This document shows positions 39,404 through 56,790 of a stretch of 64,000 nucleotides of DNA, one piece after another (position 1 is the first letter of the stretch; each line of letters begins with the position of its first letter). The stretch is from NCBI GenBank assembly GCA_963815095.1, contig CAWFFH010000003.1, forward strand, positions 64,001-128,000, in the 5' to 3' direction. The position numbers and the translations under genes are program-made. This DNA is from Candidatus Bathyarchaeota archaeon. Lineage in GTDB: Archaea; Thermoproteota; Bathyarchaeia; Bathyarchaeales; Bathycorpusculaceae. Below the pieces are notes generated by a model. It made no database searches and had not been told where the DNA came from. It saw only the letters and a program-made list of their open reading frames with translations.

Positions 39404-40402
39404 CTACTTTCCCGAAAGAATCCGGGTATATGGGTCTTCGCTGACTTGCGGAAAAGGCGTTTCTTTTCCTTTTCTAATTAAAGTTCGTTCTTTGTTTTCG
39501 GTAAATTCTCCCAAAAAGTGGGCCGAGAGCCCGAGCTCATTTAATGCGGTTTTGACTTTCTTTTGCGCTTCAGGAGCTACAGCCGCCAAAATCGTCCCAG
39601 TCGAAGAAATTGCGAGCAATTGATCATCTGTTAGTTTAAAATGTTCTTTCAACAACCCTGCTTCCTTTGGCACAGGAATTTTTTCCCAATCTACCCTAAA
39701 CCCAACCTTTGAAGCCACAGCCAACTCGTTGAGCGCCGCCACAAACCCACCTTCAGTCGCATCATGCATCGCATGAACACCCACAACATCAGCAAGTTGG
39801 ATAGCTTCTTTAACGCAGCTCTGCATGCAAACCAGTTTGGCGAGTTCTTCTTGTTTGTCAAAGCCGAAGAGCTCCCGCGCCATCTCCGAATAGGTGAGTG
39901 AGAAGTTGGTGATTGTTTCTAACCCCAAGGGTTTTGTGCACAAAATCAGGTCGCCTGGCTTGGCGTTTCCCGGAGTAATCAACTTCGTGGGCTCTACGGT
40001 TCCATAAACGGTGCAGACTCCAAGCATGTCATTGAGGCTGCCGTACATTCCTGTGTGTCCTCGAACGATGGCTATGCCTAATTCGTCGGCGGCACTGCAG
40101 GTTTGACTCATTATTTTTTGGAATCTCTCAGATTTTGTTCCTAATGGTCCAAGGAGATTTATGGTGCAGAATTCAGGTTTTGCCCCAAACAGAGCCACAT
40201 CTGAAGCGGCATAATTGATGAGTAGCCACCCAAACCATTCCTCAGGCACACCGGTACAAGGGTCAGTTGCAACCGCTACATATTTGCCATGTAGGAGATG
40301 AACGCCTGCATCGTACCCAATCGTGGGCGGAACGATGACTCGGAAATCCTTCTTGATGCAATCCAACATTTTTTGGAGTTCTTTAGCTGCAAGTTTTCCC
40401 AA
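39404..40402 (-). CDS. AIR synthase/PurM-like superfamily protein (lacks the HypE C-terminal PRIC)
   Basis: GYDAG, ATDP, SDVA..GA, GHT, GDLI, MHDATEGG; TTG start abuts the thiT stop. Confidence 0.85.
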   Translation of the reverse strand: MGKLAAKELQKMLDCIKKDFRVIVPPTIGYDAGVHLLHGKYVAVATDPCTGVPEEWFGWLLINYAASDVALFGAKPEFCTINLLGPLGTKSERFQKIMSQTCSAADELGIAIVRGHTGMYGSLNDMLGVCTVYGTVEPTKLITPGNAKPGDLILCTKPLGLETITNFSLTYSEMARELFGFDKQEELAKLVCMQSCVKEAIQLADVVGVHAMHDATEGGFVAALNELAVASKVGFRVDWEKIPVPKEAGLLKEHFKLTDDQLLAISSTGTILAAVAPEAQKKVKTALNELGLSAHFLGEFTENKERTLIRKGKETPFPQVSEDPYTRILSGK

Positions 40403-40975
40403 TTACATATACGCTCTCAGCACATTGCTTTTCTGCAATAAGTAAAGTACGAATCCGCTTATTAGAAATTCGGGCAACAGATAGCTGCCGTTGTAGACTG
40501 TTGAGTAAACCCATGGGTTTAGGGTTGGAGCGTAGACTGGCGCCCAGAAGTACACGCCTGAAACGAAATGCATGGTGAAGCGTGCGCTGATACCGACTGC
40601 GGCTCCCACTACCGGGTGCTTAGGGAAGAAACCAGCTAATCCTAACACAGCGAACGCAAGCGGATAGTCAAGCAGCACTTGGATAATTGCATACGGAACT
40701 GGAGCGATATAGGGTAGAGCCGCGAATTGTATTAAGCCATAGATTACGCCCGCGGTTATGCCGACTTTGGGTCCGCGTCGAAGCGCCAGCCAAATAATCG
40801 GGACCATGGACGCCAAGGTGATGGAGCCGCCCTGTGGCAAGGTGTAGATGATTATGAAGCTAAGTGCGGTGGCTAAGGCAGTAAAAATCGCCAATTCAGC
40901 TAAAACTCGTGGGTTTCTAAAGGATGTTTGATATTTTTTTGATTTTTTTATGGAGTCTGGATTGTTTGTTTGCAT
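40403..40975 (-). CDS. thiT: ECF S-component thiamine transporter ThiT
   Basis: PQGGS, MVPI...RRG, QVLLDY, HFVSG, YS..YN; TPP riboswitch directly upstream. Confidence 0.93.
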   Translation of the reverse strand: MQTNNPDSIKKSKKYQTSFRNPRVLAELAIFTALATALSFIIIYTLPQGGSITLASMVPIIWLALRRGPKVGITAGVIYGLIQFAALPYIAPVPYAIIQVLLDYPLAFAVLGLAGFFPKHPVVGAAVGISARFTMHFVSGVYFWAPVYAPTLNPWVYSTVYNGSYLLPEFLISGFVLYLLQKSNVLRAYM

Positions 40976-44843: not shown

Positions 44844-47800
44844 TCAGTTGTGTTTTCGTCGTCTGCGTCTGCTTGGGGGGTTTGGTCGTTGTTGTCCGCT
44901 TCCGTTATCAGTTCCGAATGCGCCGCCTGGGACGCTTCTGAAGGGTGGGACGGAATGTGGGCCTCCCTCCACCAATGAAATAGTTTCTATTGCTGGTTCT
45001 TCAAGAACTTTTTCAAGGGTAGTTTCGATTGGAGCTTGCTCTGTTACTTCGAAGGCTTGGAGCGGAGCTTCAATTACGCGTTGTTCTTCGTGAGCTGCTT
45101 CTGCAATTGGCTCGTTTGCGATGATTGCCTCTGCTTGAGCTTCGACTGGTGTTTCAATTATTGGGGCTGCTTCAACAACAGGAGCTTCTGCGATTATTGG
45201 AGTTTCGACTGCTGGAGCCTCAATAACTGGAACTTCTTCCACTGCGATTGTTGGTTGCTCGATTGGAGCTGCTTCAACAACTGCTACTTGAGCTTCCTCA
45301 ACGATTGCAGCTGGCACTTCAACTGGTGCTTCGATGATTGGAGCAGCTTGGATTACTTGTTCTTCGACTATTGGCTCTGCGATTACTGATTCATTTACTA
45401 TTTCAACTGCTGCTTCTGGCTCAGCTACAACTACTTGAGCCTCTTCTATTGGGGCAGCTTCTACAATTGGAGTTTCTTCAACGATTGGAGCTTCAATTAC
45501 TGGAGCTTCTAATATGGTTTCAACTGCTGGAGCCTCAACTGGTGCAGCTTCCTCAACAATTGGAGCTGCTTCTGTTGGGGCAGTTTCAACTGGGGCTTGC
45601 TCGATTGGAGCGGCTTCTTCTATGATTATTGCGGGAGCTCCTTCAACAATTGCCACTGGAGCTTCAATTGGTGTTTCAATTATTGGGGCTGCTTCAACAA
45701 CAGGAGCTTCTGCGATTATTGGAGTTTCGACTGCTGGAGCCTCAATAACTGGAACTTCTTCCACTGCGATTGTTGGTTGCTCGATTGGAGCTGCTTCAAC
45801 AACTGCTACTTGAGCTTCCTCAACGATTGCAGCTGGCACTTCAACTGGTGCTTCGATGATTGGAGCAGCTTGGATTACTTGTTCTTCGACTATTGGCTCT
45901 GCGATTACTGATTCATTTACTATTTCAACTGCTGCTTCTGGCTCAGCTACAACTACTTGAGCCTCTTCTATTGGGGCAGCTTCTACAATTGGAGTTTCTT
46001 CAACGATTGGAGCTTCAATTACTGGAGCTTCTAATATGGTTTCAACTGCTGGAGCCTCAACTGGTGCAGCTTCCTCAACAATTGGAGCTGCTTCTGTTGG
46101 GGCAGTTTCAACTGGGGCTTGCTCGATTGGAGCGGCTTCTTCTATGATTATTGCGGGAGCTCCTTCAACAATTGCCACTGGAGCTTCAATTGGTGTTTCA
46201 ATTATTGGGGCTGCTTCAACAACAGGAGCTTCTGCGATTATTGGAGTTTCGACTGCTGGAGCCTCAATAACTGGAACTTCTTCCACTGCGATTGTTGGTT
46301 GCTCGATTGGAGCTGCTTCAACAACTGCTACTTGAGCTTCCTCAACGATTGCAGCTGGCACTTCAACTGGTGCTTCGATGATTGGAGCAGCTTGGATTAC
46401 TTGTTCTTCGACTATTGGCTCTGCGATTACTGATTCATTTACTATTTCAACTGCTGCTTCTGGCTCAGCTACAACTACTTGAGCCTCTTCTATTGGGGCA
46501 GCTTCTACAATTGGAGTTTCTTCAACGATTGGAGCTTCAATTACTGGAGCTTCTAATATGGTTTCAACTGCTGGAGCCTCAACTGGTGCAGCTTCCTCAA
46601 CAATTGGAGCTGCTTCTGTTGGGGCAGTTTCAATTGGGGCTTGCTCGATTGGAGCGGCTTCTTCTATGATTATTGCGGGAGCTTCTTCAACAATTGCCAC
46701 TGGAGCTTCAATTGGTGTTTCAATTATTGGGGCTGCTTCAACAACAGGAGCTTCTGCGATTATTGGAGTTTCGACTGCTGGAGCCTCAATAACTGGAACT
46801 TCTTCCACTGCGATTGTTGGTTGCTCGATTGGAGCTGCTTCAACAACTGCTACTTGAGCTTCCTCAACGATTGCAGCTGGCACTTCAACTGGTGCTTCGA
46901 TGATTGGAGCAGCTTGGATTACTTGTTCTTCGACTATTGGCTCTGCGATTACTGATTCATTTACTATTTCAACTGCTGCTTCTGGCTCAGCTACAACTAC
47001 TTGAGCCTCTTCTATTGGGGCAGCTTCTACAATTGGAGTTTCTTCAACGATTGGAGCTTCAATTACTGGAGCTTCTAATATGGTTTCAACTGCTGGAGCC
47101 TCAACTGGTGCAGCTTCCTCAACAATTGGAGCTGCTTCTGTTGGGGCAGTTTCAACTGGGGCTTGCTCGATTGGAGCGGCTTCTTCTATGATTATTGCGG
47201 GAGCTCCTTCAACAATTGCCACTGGAGCTTCAATTGGTGTTTCAATTATTGGGGCTGCTTCAACAACAGGAGCTTCAACTACTGGAACTTCTGCTGCAAT
47301 TTCAACTGCTTGAGCCTCAACAATTGGGGCTTCCTCAACTGGGATAACTTCAATTGGAGCTGTCTCTATTGGGGCGGCTTCTTCGACAACTGGAGTTGCT
47401 TCAACTGGTGCAGCTTCCTCAACAATTGGGACTGCTTCTGCAACGATTTCAACTGCTGGAGCCTCAATAACTGGGGCTACTTCAACAACTGGAGTGCTTT
47501 CAACTACTGGAGCGGTTTCAACTGGGGCTTCGATGGTGGCTTGCTCAACTTGAGCTTCCACTGGGGCCTCTAAAGGGACCGCTGTCTCCACTGGAGCCGC
47601 TTCAACGATTGGAGCTTCAACTGGAACAGTTCCTACTGGAGCACACTCAACTGGGGCCGCTTCGGCTACTGGAGCTTCTGCAGGGGCAGTTTCAATTGGC
47701 GCTGTTTCGATTGGAGATGCTTCTTCAACCAGAGCGACTGGAGCTTCTTCTGCGATTGCTACTGGGGCTTCGACTGGTGTTTCAATTATTGGGGCTGTTT

Positions 47801-48815
47801 CAACAACTGGAGCTTCTGCGATTATTGGAGTTTCGACTGCTGGAGCCTCAATAACTGGAACTTCTTCCACTGCGATTGTTGGTTGCTCGATTGGAGCTGC
47901 TTCAACAACTGCTACTTGAGCTTCCTCAACGATTGCAGCTGGCACTTCAACTGGTGCTTCGATGATTGGAGCGGCTTCTTCAACCACTGGAGTTGCTTCT
48001 TCAATAACTGGAACTGCTTCGACTACAGGAGCTTCTATTGCTATAGATTCAACTACTGGAGCTTCTTCAACAATTGGTGTGCTTTCGATTACTGGAGCGG
48101 TTTCAACTGGGGCTTCGATGGTGGCTTGCTCAACTTGAGCTTCCACTGGGGCCTCTAAAGGGACCGCTGTCTCCACTGGAGCCGCTTCAACGATTGGAGC
48201 AGTCTCTGCTGGAGCACACTCAACTGGGGCCGCTTCGGCTACTGGAGCTTCTGCAGGGGCAGTTTCAATTGGCGCTGCTTCAACTGGACAAGTTTCAATA
48301 ACTGGCGCAGTTTCAACAGGTGTAGCTTCCACGGGGACCTCTAAAGGGACCGCTTCTACCGCCGTCGGTTGAGCTGCTGGAGCTTCCATTATTGGAGCTG
48401 GTTCAGGAGCTTGAATTTGTTGTGCGCAGGGAAAAATTTGGTCAATTGCTTGTTTTATTACGCCTAATTCTGTTCTGGTTGTTTCGAGCGTGTTTGAGAG
48501 AAGATTTATTTCCCGACCATAGCTTTCCTCGTCGATTTCTCCTACGACGTGTTGGATTTCGTAGTTAGCGAGGAGGGTTTCTAAGGTTTTTAGTTGGCCT
48601 TCTAGTTCCAGGGTTTTTGTTTGCATTTTTTCTGCGAGGTCTTTTCTTTGTTTTTCGATTTCAATTATTGCTGAGCTTATGTCGCCTGTGAATGAGTCGC
48701 GTGTTGCTTGTGAGATTTTGCCTGAAGTAAAAAGGTTGTCTAAGGCTTGCTTCTTTTTATTTGCTATTTCGTATTCTTCATTTAATCGTTTAAATGTATA
48801 TTTCCATGAAATCAC
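44844..48815 (-). CDS. CdvA-like coiled-coil protein with a very long acidic E/A/P/V/I low-complexity repeat tail
   Basis: N-terminal ISWK..F..L.EEYE...KKKQALDNL...GKIS...YEIQHVVGEI; GTG at 48815 after GGTG; C-terminus probably frameshifted near 44966. Confidence 0.75.
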   Translation of the reverse strand: MISWKYTFKRLNEEYEIANKKKQALDNLFTSGKISQATRDSFTGDISSAIIEIEKQRKDLAEKMQTKTLELEGQLKTLETLLANYEIQHVVGEIDEESYGREINLLSNTLETTRTELGVIKQAIDQIFPCAQQIQAPEPAPIMEAPAAQPTAVEAVPLEVPVEATPVETAPVIETCPVEAAPIETAPAEAPVAEAAPVECAPAETAPIVEAAPVETAVPLEAPVEAQVEQATIEAPVETAPVIESTPIVEEAPVVESIAIEAPVVEAVPVIEEATPVVEEAAPIIEAPVEVPAAIVEEAQVAVVEAAPIEQPTIAVEEVPVIEAPAVETPIIAEAPVVETAPIIETPVEAPVAIAEEAPVALVEEASPIETAPIETAPAEAPVAEAAPVECAPVGTVPVEAPIVEAAPVETAVPLEAPVEAQVEQATIEAPVETAPVVESTPVVEVAPVIEAPAVEIVAEAVPIVEEAAPVEATPVVEEAAPIETAPIEVIPVEEAPIVEAQAVEIAAEVPVVEAPVVEAAPIIETPIEAPVAIVEGAPAIIIEEAAPIEQAPVETAPTEAAPIVEEAAPVEAPAVETILEAPVIEAPIVEETPIVEAAPIEEAQVVVAEPEAAVEIVNESVIAEPIVEEQVIQAAPIIEAPVEVPAAIVEEAQVAVVEAAPIEQPTIAVEEVPVIEAPAVETPIIAEAPVVEAAPIIETPIEAPVAIVEEAPAIIIEEAAPIEQAPIETAPTEAAPIVEEAAPVEAPAVETILEAPVIEAPIVEETPIVEAAPIEEAQVVVAEPEAAVEIVNESVIAEPIVEEQVIQAAPIIEAPVEVPAAIVEEAQVAVVEAAPIEQPTIAVEEVPVIEAPAVETPIIAEAPVVEAAPIIETPIEAPVAIVEGAPAIIIEEAAPIEQAPVETAPTEAAPIVEEAAPVEAPAVETILEAPVIEAPIVEETPIVEAAPIEEAQVVVAEPEAAVEIVNESVIAEPIVEEQVIQAAPIIEAPVEVPAAIVEEAQVAVVEAAPIEQPTIAVEEVPVIEAPAVETPIIAEAPVVEAAPIIETPIEAPVAIVEGAPAIIIEEAAPIEQAPVETAPTEAAPIVEEAAPVEAPAVETILEAPVIEAPIVEETPIVEAAPIEEAQVVVAEPEAAVEIVNESVIAEPIVEEQVIQAAPIIEAPVEVPAAIVEEAQVAVVEAAPIEQPTIAVEEVPVIEAPAVETPIIAEAPVVEAAPIIETPVEAQAEAIIANEPIAEAAHEEQRVIEAPLQAFEVTEQAPIETTLEKVLEEPAIETISLVEGGPHSVPPFRSVPGGAFGTDNGSGQQRPNPPSRRRRRKHN
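45147..47276. repeat. 522-bp (174-aa) tandem repeat, about 4.1 copies
   Basis: Identical shadow ORFs start at 45338/45860/46382/46904; I see only two substitutions, in one unit (near 46633 and 46684); partial copy at about 47776-47970. Confidence 0.93.
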
Positions 48816-48921
48816 GTTTAGGGCACCGTAGCATCCATAGGATAGTTGAGAATTAACGTTTGTTAACATGCGCATATATCGCTAACTATTAATTTCGGGT
48901 GGGTTAGCAGAAAAATGGAAA

Positions 48922-49228: not shown

Positions 49229-49600
49229 ATGGTAGCATTAACAATTACAGTAAACGGAGAAAAATCCGAAGCAAGAATAATCAAAAAAATGCATGAACGC
49301 GTAATCAAAAGCTTCATGGACACAATAATATTGTCTGAATTACGAAATGGACCCATAAGCGGATACGACGTCATTTCGTTCATACACAACAAATTTGGGT
49401 TCCTCGCCAGCTCTGGAACAGTGTATTCACTACTCTACTCGCTTGAACGCAATGGATTAGTCGAGGGAATATGGATCGAGCGTAAAAGAGTCTACAAACT
49501 CACAGAAAAAGGAGCAAAAACAATCGCAACCATCCTCAACTCACAGGAAAAAATCAAGGGTTTCATGTCAACAATCCTCTCAGCCCAAATAACCCATTAA
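49229..49600 (+). CDS. PadR-family transcriptional regulator
   Basis: SGYD, SSGTVYSLLYSLERNGLV, KRVYKLTEKG. Confidence 0.9.
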   Translation: MVALTITVNGEKSEARIIKKMHERVIKSFMDTIILSELRNGPISGYDVISFIHNKFGFLASSGTVYSLLYSLERNGLVEGIWIERKRVYKLTEKGAKTIATILNSQEKIKGFMSTILSAQITH

Positions 49601-49930: not shown

Positions 49931-52156
<2,226 letters not shown>

Positions 52157-55585: not shown

Positions 55586-55860
55586 TAAAATTCCTCAATA
55601 CCCTTATAAAATAAATAGTGAAAGGAAATATAAAAAGTGGATACCAACAATTTTTCTTTGCAAAAAGAGGTTCACATCGCTCTCAACAAGTACAAGCACG
55701 AGAGATTGAGTATTTTTCTTTCAAAAAAATTTAGCATACATGTAAAAAAAAGTGAGTTTCCAAAATTCTAAATTAAATAATTCTGTCTAATTTTGCATGC
55801 TTGAAAGGACAAAAGATAAGAGAATTCAAGCGTTCTACAAGTGTGGCACAGTGGCAACTA

Positions 55861-56790
55861 ATGGAAGTCGTAAATGTCCGTTTACCCGACAAATTAACCG
55901 CAGACATAGACAAACTAGCAAAAAAACATAACCTCACCCGATCAGAAGTCATGCGTCAAGCATTAACCATCTATCTGCACCTTACAGAAAACGTTGGCAC
56001 CATGCTAAGACCAATAGTTTTTCAAGTAAAACCAGCACAAATAACCTACACTCGCAGAGGCGATGTCTCCATCCTAAAAGTTCCCACAGGACACGCCATA
56101 GTGGTAGGCTCAACCTCAAGTGGCGCTGTTGGCCCCAAAAAAATGGACAAGGTTCAAGTGGAGGGGCAGGTGCTGGGAAAGTTTTTGGCAAGAGTTGCCT
56201 TAATGGATGTGATCGCAACGGGCGCGTTTCCACTTCTTTTGTCTGTAACGTTAGGCGTAGAAAAAGAACCCAGTGGCAACTCGATAATTGAGGGAATTCG
56301 ACGTGAAGCTAGAAGCATAGGTCTTGACGCAAATCAAGCTCTTATGGAGAACACTGAAGACAATTTTGAAACAGTACAAACCGGCGTTGGATTAACCGTA
56401 GTTGGTTTTGCAAATGATGAAGAGCTCAGGCTTGGAAAAACCATGCCGGGCGACTTAATAGTAGCAATTGGCAAACCCAAAGTTGGAGACGAAGTACTAG
56501 TCGCAGAAACACGCGGAGAAATTGCGGACCTCAAAAACGTCACACAACTATCCCAGAGAAAATATGTACACGATATTGCACCAGTTGGGGGGTTTGGGAT
56601 TGCAAGTGAAGCAAGAATGATGGCGTATGGCGTTGGGAGACAACTAAAACTCTACGAGGTGCAAGGGTTGGATTTGAGTAAGTCAGCGGGTCCAGCAACA
56701 GTTGTTCTTGCAACAATTGACAAAGAGAAGCTTGAAGATTTAACTTCGTTAATTCCTAAACCAATTAATGTTGTTGGAGAAATAATCTAA
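55861..56790 (+). CDS. Ribbon-helix-helix (CopG/MetJ) + CblS/PurM-like domain fusion, putative regulator
   Basis: MEVVNVRLP...IDKLAK...TRSEVMRQAL, then SSGAVGPK..D...ARVALM...GA, TEDNF.TVQTG.G, GKP.VG, KSAGPAT; ATG at 55861. Confidence 0.8.
   Translation: MEVVNVRLPDKLTADIDKLAKKHNLTRSEVMRQALTIYLHLTENVGTMLRPIVFQVKPAQITYTRRGDVSILKVPTGHAIVVGSTSSGAVGPKKMDKVQVEGQVLGKFLARVALMDVIATGAFPLLLSVTLGVEKEPSGNSIIEGIRREARSIGLDANQALMENTEDNFETVQTGVGLTVVGFANDEELRLGKTMPGDLIVAIGKPKVGDEVLVAETRGEIADLKNVTQLSQRKYVHDIAPVGGFGIASEARMMAYGVGRQLKLYEVQGLDLSKSAGPATVVLATIDKEKLEDLTSLIPKPINVVGEII

Follow-up and report, generated by a model that had tools for sequence, protein, structure and literature searches.

The window analysed here is a 64,000-nt stretch of contig CAWFFH010000003.1 (C3) of a soil-dwelling Candidatus Bathyarchaeota archaeon, and our subject is one gene on its minus strand, at 44844–48815, which encodes a CdvA-like protein with a very long acidic tail. 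The host was assigned to the Bathyarchaeia through close homologues with 69–76% identical heads, which carry the names "CdvA-like protein", Candidatus Bathycorpusculum sp. and Bathyarchaeia archaeon. The locus holds one real gene. It lies in a single minus-strand open frame (44844–48875) that counts 1,343 codons from its first ATG. We found that the GTG at 48813–48815 is the better start, because residue 2 of the database relatives aligns with query residue 22 of the ATG-initiated frame, gene callers elsewhere place the protein start at the residue equivalent to GTG 48815, and a stop codon interrupts the 20 upstream codons in seven orthologous loci; on the relatives' starts and these upstream stops, ATG 48875 was ruled out. 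The coding sequence comprises 1,323 codons and a TGA stop (44844–44846), in agreement with the coordinates and description given in a preliminary description of this DNA, whose end at 48815 is this better start. Plus-strand frames of 75–136 amino acids (aa) over 44848–48301 recur every 522 bp and are shadows of a repeat rather than genes. Among the 2,190 open frames of at least 150 aa in the 2.69-Mb genome, the gene is the fourth longest, and its product divides into a head (residues 1–128), a tail (129–1249) and a C-terminal module (1250–1323).

The head (48432–48815, minus strand) is a CdvA three-helix coiled-coil domain with no PRC domain before it. Both points had been made in the preliminary description, which called the head CdvA-like and saw no PRC barrel, and which proposed a profile comparison with the CdvA coiled-coil family as a check. 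This comparison gave 47.2 bits to Pfam PF18822, the CdvA coiled-coil domain, against a cut-off of 30. A structural model of the head, built from 41 family members, has a predicted local distance difference test score (pLDDT) of 91 and helices at residues 3–30, 36–90 and 96–127. When the model was searched against the PDB with Foldseek, the top nine matches were all S. islandicus CdvA chains (TMq 0.74–0.78), from the filament (9S9G) and a non-polymerising mutant (9S9I), and the following match had an E-value of 0.3. Structural alignment with VIA placed model residues 1–128 on residues 67–194 of the 9S9G chain (Z 13.5, root-mean-square deviation 2.2 Å, 128 residues), and a phmmer search of the PDB with the head found the same register without gaps (E 8.3e-5). 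The head is therefore the entire CdvA helical domain and nothing more. No PRC domain was found in the protein with Pfam, with the NCBIfam CdvA profile, which matches at positions 69–192 of 235 only, or in the structural alignment, which begins at chain residue 67. The codons upstream are non-coding, with stops in the seven orthologous loci, and the divergent PadR-family gene comes next upstream.

The same genome carries a complete cdv operon on another contig (C5), consisting of cdvB, cdvA (238 aa), a second cdvB with a winged-helix-like C-terminus, and cdvC (Vps4-like MIT-AAA). This canonical operon (locus L003, 1–3370) is Crenarchaeota-like. Its CdvA covers positions 3–212 of the NCBIfam CdvA profile, and canonical CdvA ends in L-P-E-P-P-V-V-V-Y-V-K-E in 21 of 23 loci of the genus, the remaining two being broken. 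This canonical CdvB-binding end peptide (E3B peptide) is absent from the window protein. Over the coiled coil the two proteins share 23% identity (E 1e-10), and the window gene is a second, PRC-less CdvA paralog beside the canonical CdvA. The preliminary description had seen no adjacent ESCRT-III or Vps4 genes, and this holds for the whole contig of the paralog: the four Snf7-like matches of the genome lie on C5 (two), C1 and C4, and CdvC/Vps4 lies on C5.

The tail (residues 129–1249; 45069–48431, minus strand) comprises 1,121 aa with a net charge of −240 and 241 carboxylates per chain. Seven residues account for 97% of it (A 22.7%, E 21.5%, V 17.0%, P 15.0%, I 12.9%, T 4.7% and Q 3.3%), and it contains a single R and no K, D, F, W or Y. 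Autocorrelation revealed a lag-5 periodicity, reflecting degenerate units of about five residues of the type A-P-V/I-E. When one 174-aa unit of the tail was folded, it showed no secondary structure (pLDDT 56, predicted template-modelling score 0.10), which is a rough guide only as the fold came from a single sequence. The tail is predicted to be a disordered, purely anionic Glu/Ala/Val/Pro/Ile chain. No other frame among the 2,190 contains a 100-aa stretch with ≥18 acidic and ≥8 Pro residues but no more than 2 basic and 2 aromatic ones. The preliminary description of a tail made almost only of E/A/P/V/I/T/Q applies to residues 129–1249 and fails for the last 74 residues, which form a module followed by a basic end. 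Its picture of a long anionic disordered brush is likewise right in part: the tail is acidic, predicted to be unstructured and variable in length, but it is not a free, featureless end, as it leads into a conserved C-terminal module. A protein search with tail residues 160–700 returned no usable match. Pfam Extensin_1 (PF02095) matches five stretches of the tail polymer (121.6 bits, cut-off 105); we read this as a low-complexity, compositional match because the head is a cytoplasmic CdvA domain, there is no leader, and the same match recurs in the tails of relatives.

Much of this length is repetitive. A tandem array of 4.1 copies of a 522-bp (174-codon) unit occupies 45134–47281 (minus strand), in which copies 2 and 4 are identical, copy 3 differs by 2 nt and copy 1 by 3 nt at the array edge. 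Older, diverged internal duplications lie at 47448–48296 (minus strand), where 47448–47615 matches 48033–48200 (92% identity), 47622–47723 matches 48195–48296 (90%), and 47762–48061 is an 81% copy of the 522-bp unit. Two sister species have different repeats, namely 4 × 579 bp in a different region of the tail (G009) and 2 × 1,122 bp (G001), and all three units are multiples of three. The tail reached its ~1,120 residues via recent in-frame tandem duplications.

Repeats of this kind raise the question of whether the tail is a product of mis-assembly. The four copies of the 522-bp unit are 99–100% identical, and related short-read assemblies give broken forms of ~230–280 aa that end out of frame. 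In four read sets (X1 and X2, DNA; X5 and X6, RNA libraries) the contigs are 151–881 nt long, none spans the array, and large parts of the gene lie without cover, so that the copy number is neither confirmed nor refuted by them. In one 881-nt contig the repeat segments follow another order, but with 111–164 letters fitting both sides this is uninformative. Against mis-assembly, three species-level genomes, in assemblies of 9–20 contigs each, have open frames of 1,137–1,323 codons that were expanded independently with different units, which argues that the giant tails are real. Copy 3 carries two substitutions of its own, and even if the array is reduced to one copy, ~600 tail residues remain, more than in any other ortholog. 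The RNA-library contigs cover 46722–47344 and 48536–48750; they are identical between X5 and X6, which are probably one data set, and give a weak hint that the gene is transcribed.

Behind the tail lies a conserved C-terminal module. Orthologs of the genus end in motif 1 (P-L-Q-x-F-E-V-T-E ... E-T-T-L-E-K-V), motif 2 (V-E-E-A-H-x-P-A-H-P-x-E-A-P-x-Q-A) and an acidic T/D/E-rich end. Motif 1 has nine invariant columns in an alignment of 13 genus orthologs and is retained in the window protein (residues 1250–1283; 44967–45068, minus strand). A hidden Markov model of the module matches 49 of 263 stored family proteins, the window protein included, and about six members at a greater distance keep motif 2 alone; in the orthologs from other families the module could not be recognised. 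DNA alignment and three-frame translations place one extra G (AGGAGG to AGGGAGG; 44965–44967, minus strand) directly after motif 1 in the window gene and in both sister species (G009 and G001), so the frameshift is ancestral to this three-species clade. As a result, the window protein closes with 40 residues of basic C-terminus (1284–1323; 44847–44966, minus strand) that finish with five Arg and Lys-His-Asn, in place of motif 2 and the acidic end, both of which can still be read in the old frame. Such a change could mark a decaying gene. Against this, the gene stayed open in all three species, the old-frame stop codon is mutated in two of them, and of 15 variable sites 7 are third positions in the new frame versus 4 in the old, numbers too small for significance. 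Contigs of two DNA runs (X1 and X2) cover the frameshift site without differences. The new frame appears to be the frame in use. We did not adopt motif 1 as a diverged E3B peptide, as its likeness to the canonical end peptide is only loose. A predicted complex of the CdvB winged helix (19-row alignment) with motif 1 (13 rows), run without controls, scored 0.00, which speaks neither for nor against binding.

To place the gene among its relatives, we searched 40 related genomes and found a paralog-type match in 32 of them (E 1e-24 or better, 38–93% identity), namely in 17 of 24 genomes within the genus and in 15 of 16 from the order's other families. It was never in the cdv locus, and it co-occurs with a canonical-type CdvA (~240–260 aa) in 32 of the 40 relatives. 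Among 150 genomes sampled across the class, each ≥80% complete, the paralog was present in 36 of 39 genomes of the order and in none of the 111 outside; 14 of these 111 gave only weak matches (E 1e-12 to 1e-15, 24–32% identity) in frames of 236–280 aa, the size of canonical CdvA. The seven genus genomes without a paralog match are 58–98% complete. Four genus genomes (G005, G016, G017 and G023; 88–97% complete) have the most divergent CdvB (62–73% identity) and no paralog-type match, which could be lineage-specific loss or an unassembled repeat gene. Several genomes of other families (G034, G080, G085, G099 and G027) have two or three CdvA-like matches besides canonical CdvA. G034, for example, has matches of 144 and 206 aa on one contig, and G085 has one of 451 aa; further duplication of the paralog may have occurred in these families.

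All orthologs examined have acidic tails (19–36% Glu, 0–10 K+R) in which composition is conserved and sequence is not, as expected if bulk physical properties are selected. Length varies widely, as a comparison proposed in the preliminary description showed: intact orthologs are 243–604 aa in total, with open frames of up to 618 aa elsewhere. When 1.84 billion representatives were searched without a profile, 263 family clusters were returned, and database members are at most 590 aa long among the matches listed (120 of 368 and 150 of 263). Only the window genome and its two sister species, with 92–93% identical heads, exceed 1,100 aa (1,323 aa, and 1,223 and 1,137 aa in G009 and G001). The tail after the head thus spans 110 to ~1,190 residues among close relatives, and that of the window protein is ~2 to 10 times longer than those of the other members seen, the three giant-tail species aside. 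In fragmented assemblies, relatives take forms of ~230–280 aa that end out of frame within repeats and look like assembly breaks. We also observed orthologs cut to ~230–440 aa in three loci (L009 in G022, L010 in G011 and L016 in G014), with out-of-frame endings in repeats; in L016 the conserved C-terminal motif lies downstream in another frame, and in G022 cdvB itself has six internal stops. These cut orthologs are probably assembly or consensus errors at repeats, not short isoforms.

What such a protein might do is best considered against the CdvA filament. Drobnic et al. (2025; 10.1101/2025.09.15.676241) describe S. islandicus CdvA as an antiparallel double-stranded helical filament with the PRC domains inside, making cross-strand contacts, and the coiled coils facing outward. 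Subunits join head to tail through A90, L94, I100, I149, M153 and I156, and Asp changes at these residues abolish polymerisation (Drobnic et al., 2025). The positions of the PRC domains are said to explain earlier reports that CdvA without PRC does not polymerise, and the filaments are described as constitutive, very stable and without a known regulator (Drobnic et al., 2025). We found that A24, L28, I34, A83, I87 and V90 of the window protein align without gaps to these six contact residues. Across the 41 family members the six columns are at least 95% hydrophobic, a level that only 30 of the 128 positions in the head attain, and four of the six vary little or not at all. In the canonical CdvA of the same genome these positions are A, L, I, A, I and E, five of six identical to the paralog versus 23% identity overall. 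All six longitudinal contact positions are conserved in the paralog.

With the contacts kept and the PRC domain missing, joining canonical CdvA filaments is likelier for the paralog than assembling alone. The preliminary description had called the head self-assembling, a claim that does not sit well with the missing PRC domain, as Sulfolobus CdvA without PRC reportedly does not polymerise (Drobnic et al., 2025). We tentatively propose that the most likely function of the paralog is that of a brush or spacer on CdvA filaments. Using the head-to-tail contact, it would insert into, or add onto, the CdvA protofilaments of the division apparatus; lacking the cross-strand contact of the PRC domain, it would not be expected to build the double filament alone. 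As the coiled coils face outward in the CdvA filament, the tail, which follows directly on helix 3, would extend away from the filament. Packed together in numbers, such tails would make up a dense brush, polyanionic and stiffened by proline, that keeps DNA, ribosomes and neighbouring filaments away and determines the spacing around the CdvA structure. By our estimate each tail would measure tens of nm as a coil, with a contour length of ~380 nm, and tail length would be an evolutionarily tunable parameter of the brush. The presence of the canonical operon on C5 and the co-occurrence of CdvA and paralog in relatives make co-assembly plausible. A bolder version, in our judgement unlikely, would make the paralog an obligate second subunit of the CdvA polymer, copolymerising head to tail and surrounding the division filament with a polyanionic brush whose thickness follows from tail length and is tuned by rapid in-frame repeat expansion. 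The result would be a nucleoid-excluding, filament-spacing "bottle-brush" like neurofilament side-arms, in which the frameshift-born poly-Arg tip of the giant tails might serve as a sticker, either holding the brush together by cross-links or fixing it to DNA or membrane.

Several points weigh against a brush on CdvA filaments. Conserved hydrophobic positions in a coiled coil can serve folding instead of an interface. Position 90 is A in 14 of the 41 family members and E in the canonical protein. The conserved C-terminal module points to a specific partner at the distal end, a situation more in line with a tether than with a free brush. Of the seven genus genomes in which no paralog was seen, four are 93–98% complete, and the protein may be dispensable. 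Transcription is hinted at only by two RNA libraries that resemble one data set, and the brush dimensions are estimates, not computed values.

A different possibility, which we consider rather unlikely, is that the paralog is a filament capper or negative regulator. It would bind the ends of CdvA protofilaments, where the missing PRC domain and the bulky anionic tail would block growth or bundling, so that it would control when and where CdvA polymerises and the tail would be a steric block, not a structural brush. Such a capper draws on the same interface conservation as the brush, and it would supply a regulator for filaments that are described as constitutive and very stable with none known, and for which PRC is needed to polymerise (Drobnic et al., 2025). 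The lack of a paralog match in some near-complete genus genomes also fits a modulator better than a core part. A capper, however, needs no tail of 100–1,100 residues, leaving the repeated expansion of the tail unexplained, and a pure capper needs only one half of the contact, whereas both halves (A24/L28/I34 and A83/I87/V90) are conserved.

The C-terminal module gives rise to another explanation, which we regard as doubtful, in which the protein is a long flexible tether or adaptor. The coiled coil would dock on CdvA or self-associate, and the module at the other end would bind a second partner, be it a Cdv component, DNA or membrane, over a distance given by the tail. For the giant-tail clade, nucleic acid or anionic lipid would be the target of the new basic end. 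The nine invariant columns of motif 1 in 13 orthologs, the occurrence of motifs 1 and 2 in 49 of 263 family proteins and the persistence of motif 2 alone in about six distant ones speak for such a tether, and its architecture of coiled coil, linker and end peptide parallels that of canonical CdvA. Yet motif 2, the more widely conserved of the two, was destroyed by the frameshift in exactly the three giant-tail species while the gene stayed open. Moreover, the module is unrecognisable in other families and the canonical end peptide is absent.

The surroundings of the gene bear on a fourth explanation, namely a role independent of division, in which a homo-oligomeric coiled coil carries a polyanion that buffers or stores cations in the cytoplasm or scaffolds a charge-driven condensate, and CdvA ancestry is history only. 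The paralog is flanked by an aspartate dehydrogenase gene (convergent), a divergent PadR-family regulator (Pfam PadR; 49229–49600, plus strand, 413 nt upstream) and a tRNA-Lys gene. These neighbours are conserved in the genus and none is a division gene, the paralog never lies in a cdv locus, and each chain offers its 241 carboxylates, all of which would suit such a role. By tblastn, 15 of 17 genus loci have PadR next to the ortholog, whereas all three loci of other families lack it there. This synteny does not reach beyond the genus, and we set PadR aside as a functional partner and treat it as a neighbour only. The CdvA contact residues are, furthermore, conserved more strongly than the rest of the head, and the high Val/Ile/Ala/Pro content is atypical of cation-storage proteins. 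Taken together, we judge a division-independent role improbable. An artefact, in the form of a tail mis-assembled from repeats or a pseudogene left by the frameshift, is very improbable in light of the three open, independently expanded genes and the clade-wide new frame.

Elsewhere in the window, we observed a thiamine pyrophosphate (TPP) riboswitch (RF00059; 40966–41080, minus strand; 61.4 bits, gathering score 54.3) directly upstream of a Thia_YuaJ thiamine transporter gene (40403–40975, minus strand), which is followed by a ThiL-like gene of the AIR-synthase family (39404–40402). A KatG-type catalase-peroxidase gene (49931–52108, minus strand; Pfam peroxidase, 242.8 bits) lies in a 2-kb block of 53.8% G+C, compared with ~41–48% for most of the window, and may have been horizontally acquired. 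In addition, the plus-strand gene at 55801–56790 encodes an unusual protein of 329 aa in which a ribbon-helix-helix (CopG) N-terminus is fused to an AIR-synthase-related N-terminal domain.

Of all components of the archaeal ESCRT-type division machinery, CdvA is the one least understood. The structure of its filament became available only in 2025, and that study leaves the regulation, spacing and attachment of the filament as open questions (Drobnic et al., 2025). A natural CdvA that appears to keep the longitudinal contact without the lateral PRC domain would be a ready probe of how CdvA polymers are built and controlled, and tails of 110 to ~1,190 residues amount to a natural gradient of lengths for studying the effect of a polyanionic brush or tether on a cytoskeletal filament in prokaryotes. 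As the gene is repeatedly truncated or frame-broken in the short-read assemblies of the clade, its true size is under-reported in databases.

Charged disordered brushes and spacers are known from neurofilament side-arms, the projection domains of microtubule-associated proteins (MAPs), the PopZ linker, titin PEVK and trypanosome EP procyclin. By functional analogy, the paralog would resemble these in combining an oligomerising or filament-binding coiled coil with a long, charged, proline-rich disordered chain in which bulk properties, not sequence, are conserved. It has no sequence relationship to them, and its tail is purely anionic, unlike PEVK and neurofilament tails, and unusually rich in Val, Ile and Ala. 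A likeness of CdvA to the steadiness box of ESCRT-I Vps23/Vps37 was proposed by Makarova et al. (2024; 10.1101/2024.02.06.579148). The head does share a helical hairpin with this box (VIA against 6VME, Z 10.2 over 65 residues; 2F6M, Z 9.6 over 63 residues), but these scores fall within the range common for any helical hairpin and cover half of the head, and they provide no evidence of membership.

The closest comparisons are with CdvA itself. With S. islandicus CdvA the paralog shares the full-length three-helix coiled coil (18% identity), a flexible C-terminal extension after helix 3, and hydrophobic residues at all six contact positions, three of them identical. It differs in having no PRC domain and no canonical CdvB-binding end peptide, in lying outside the cdv operon, and in carrying 1,121 acidic residues in place of a ~30-residue linker. 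The canonical CdvA of its own genome likewise matches it in the coiled coil and in five of six contact residues, whereas that protein has an N-terminal domain, a short non-acidic linker and the invariant end peptide, and is encoded between two cdvB genes upstream of cdvC.

Finally, the gene belongs to a known but uncharacterised kind, which NCBI names "CdvA-like protein" in Bathyarchaeia records. Makarova et al. (2024) devote one sentence to a bathyarchaeal CdvA-like protein with a Glu-rich unstructured tail (example KPV61682.1). Matched by this description, the window protein agrees in organism group, head, type of tail (21.5% Glu, net charge −240, no predicted structure), location outside the cdv locus and occurrence in addition to canonical CdvA; it differs in its far longer tail and in a C-terminus rewritten by a frameshift. 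We found no further account of the paralog in the literature covered, which is thin for subscription journals and for preprint supplements, where a family or arCOG listing may exist. Relative to this known kind, the extreme tail length with its independent expansions and the restriction of the paralog to one order, as sampled, are new here. To these the sequence comparisons add the conservation of filament contact residues in a protein without a PRC domain, and a conserved C-terminal module together with its replacement via a frameshift.

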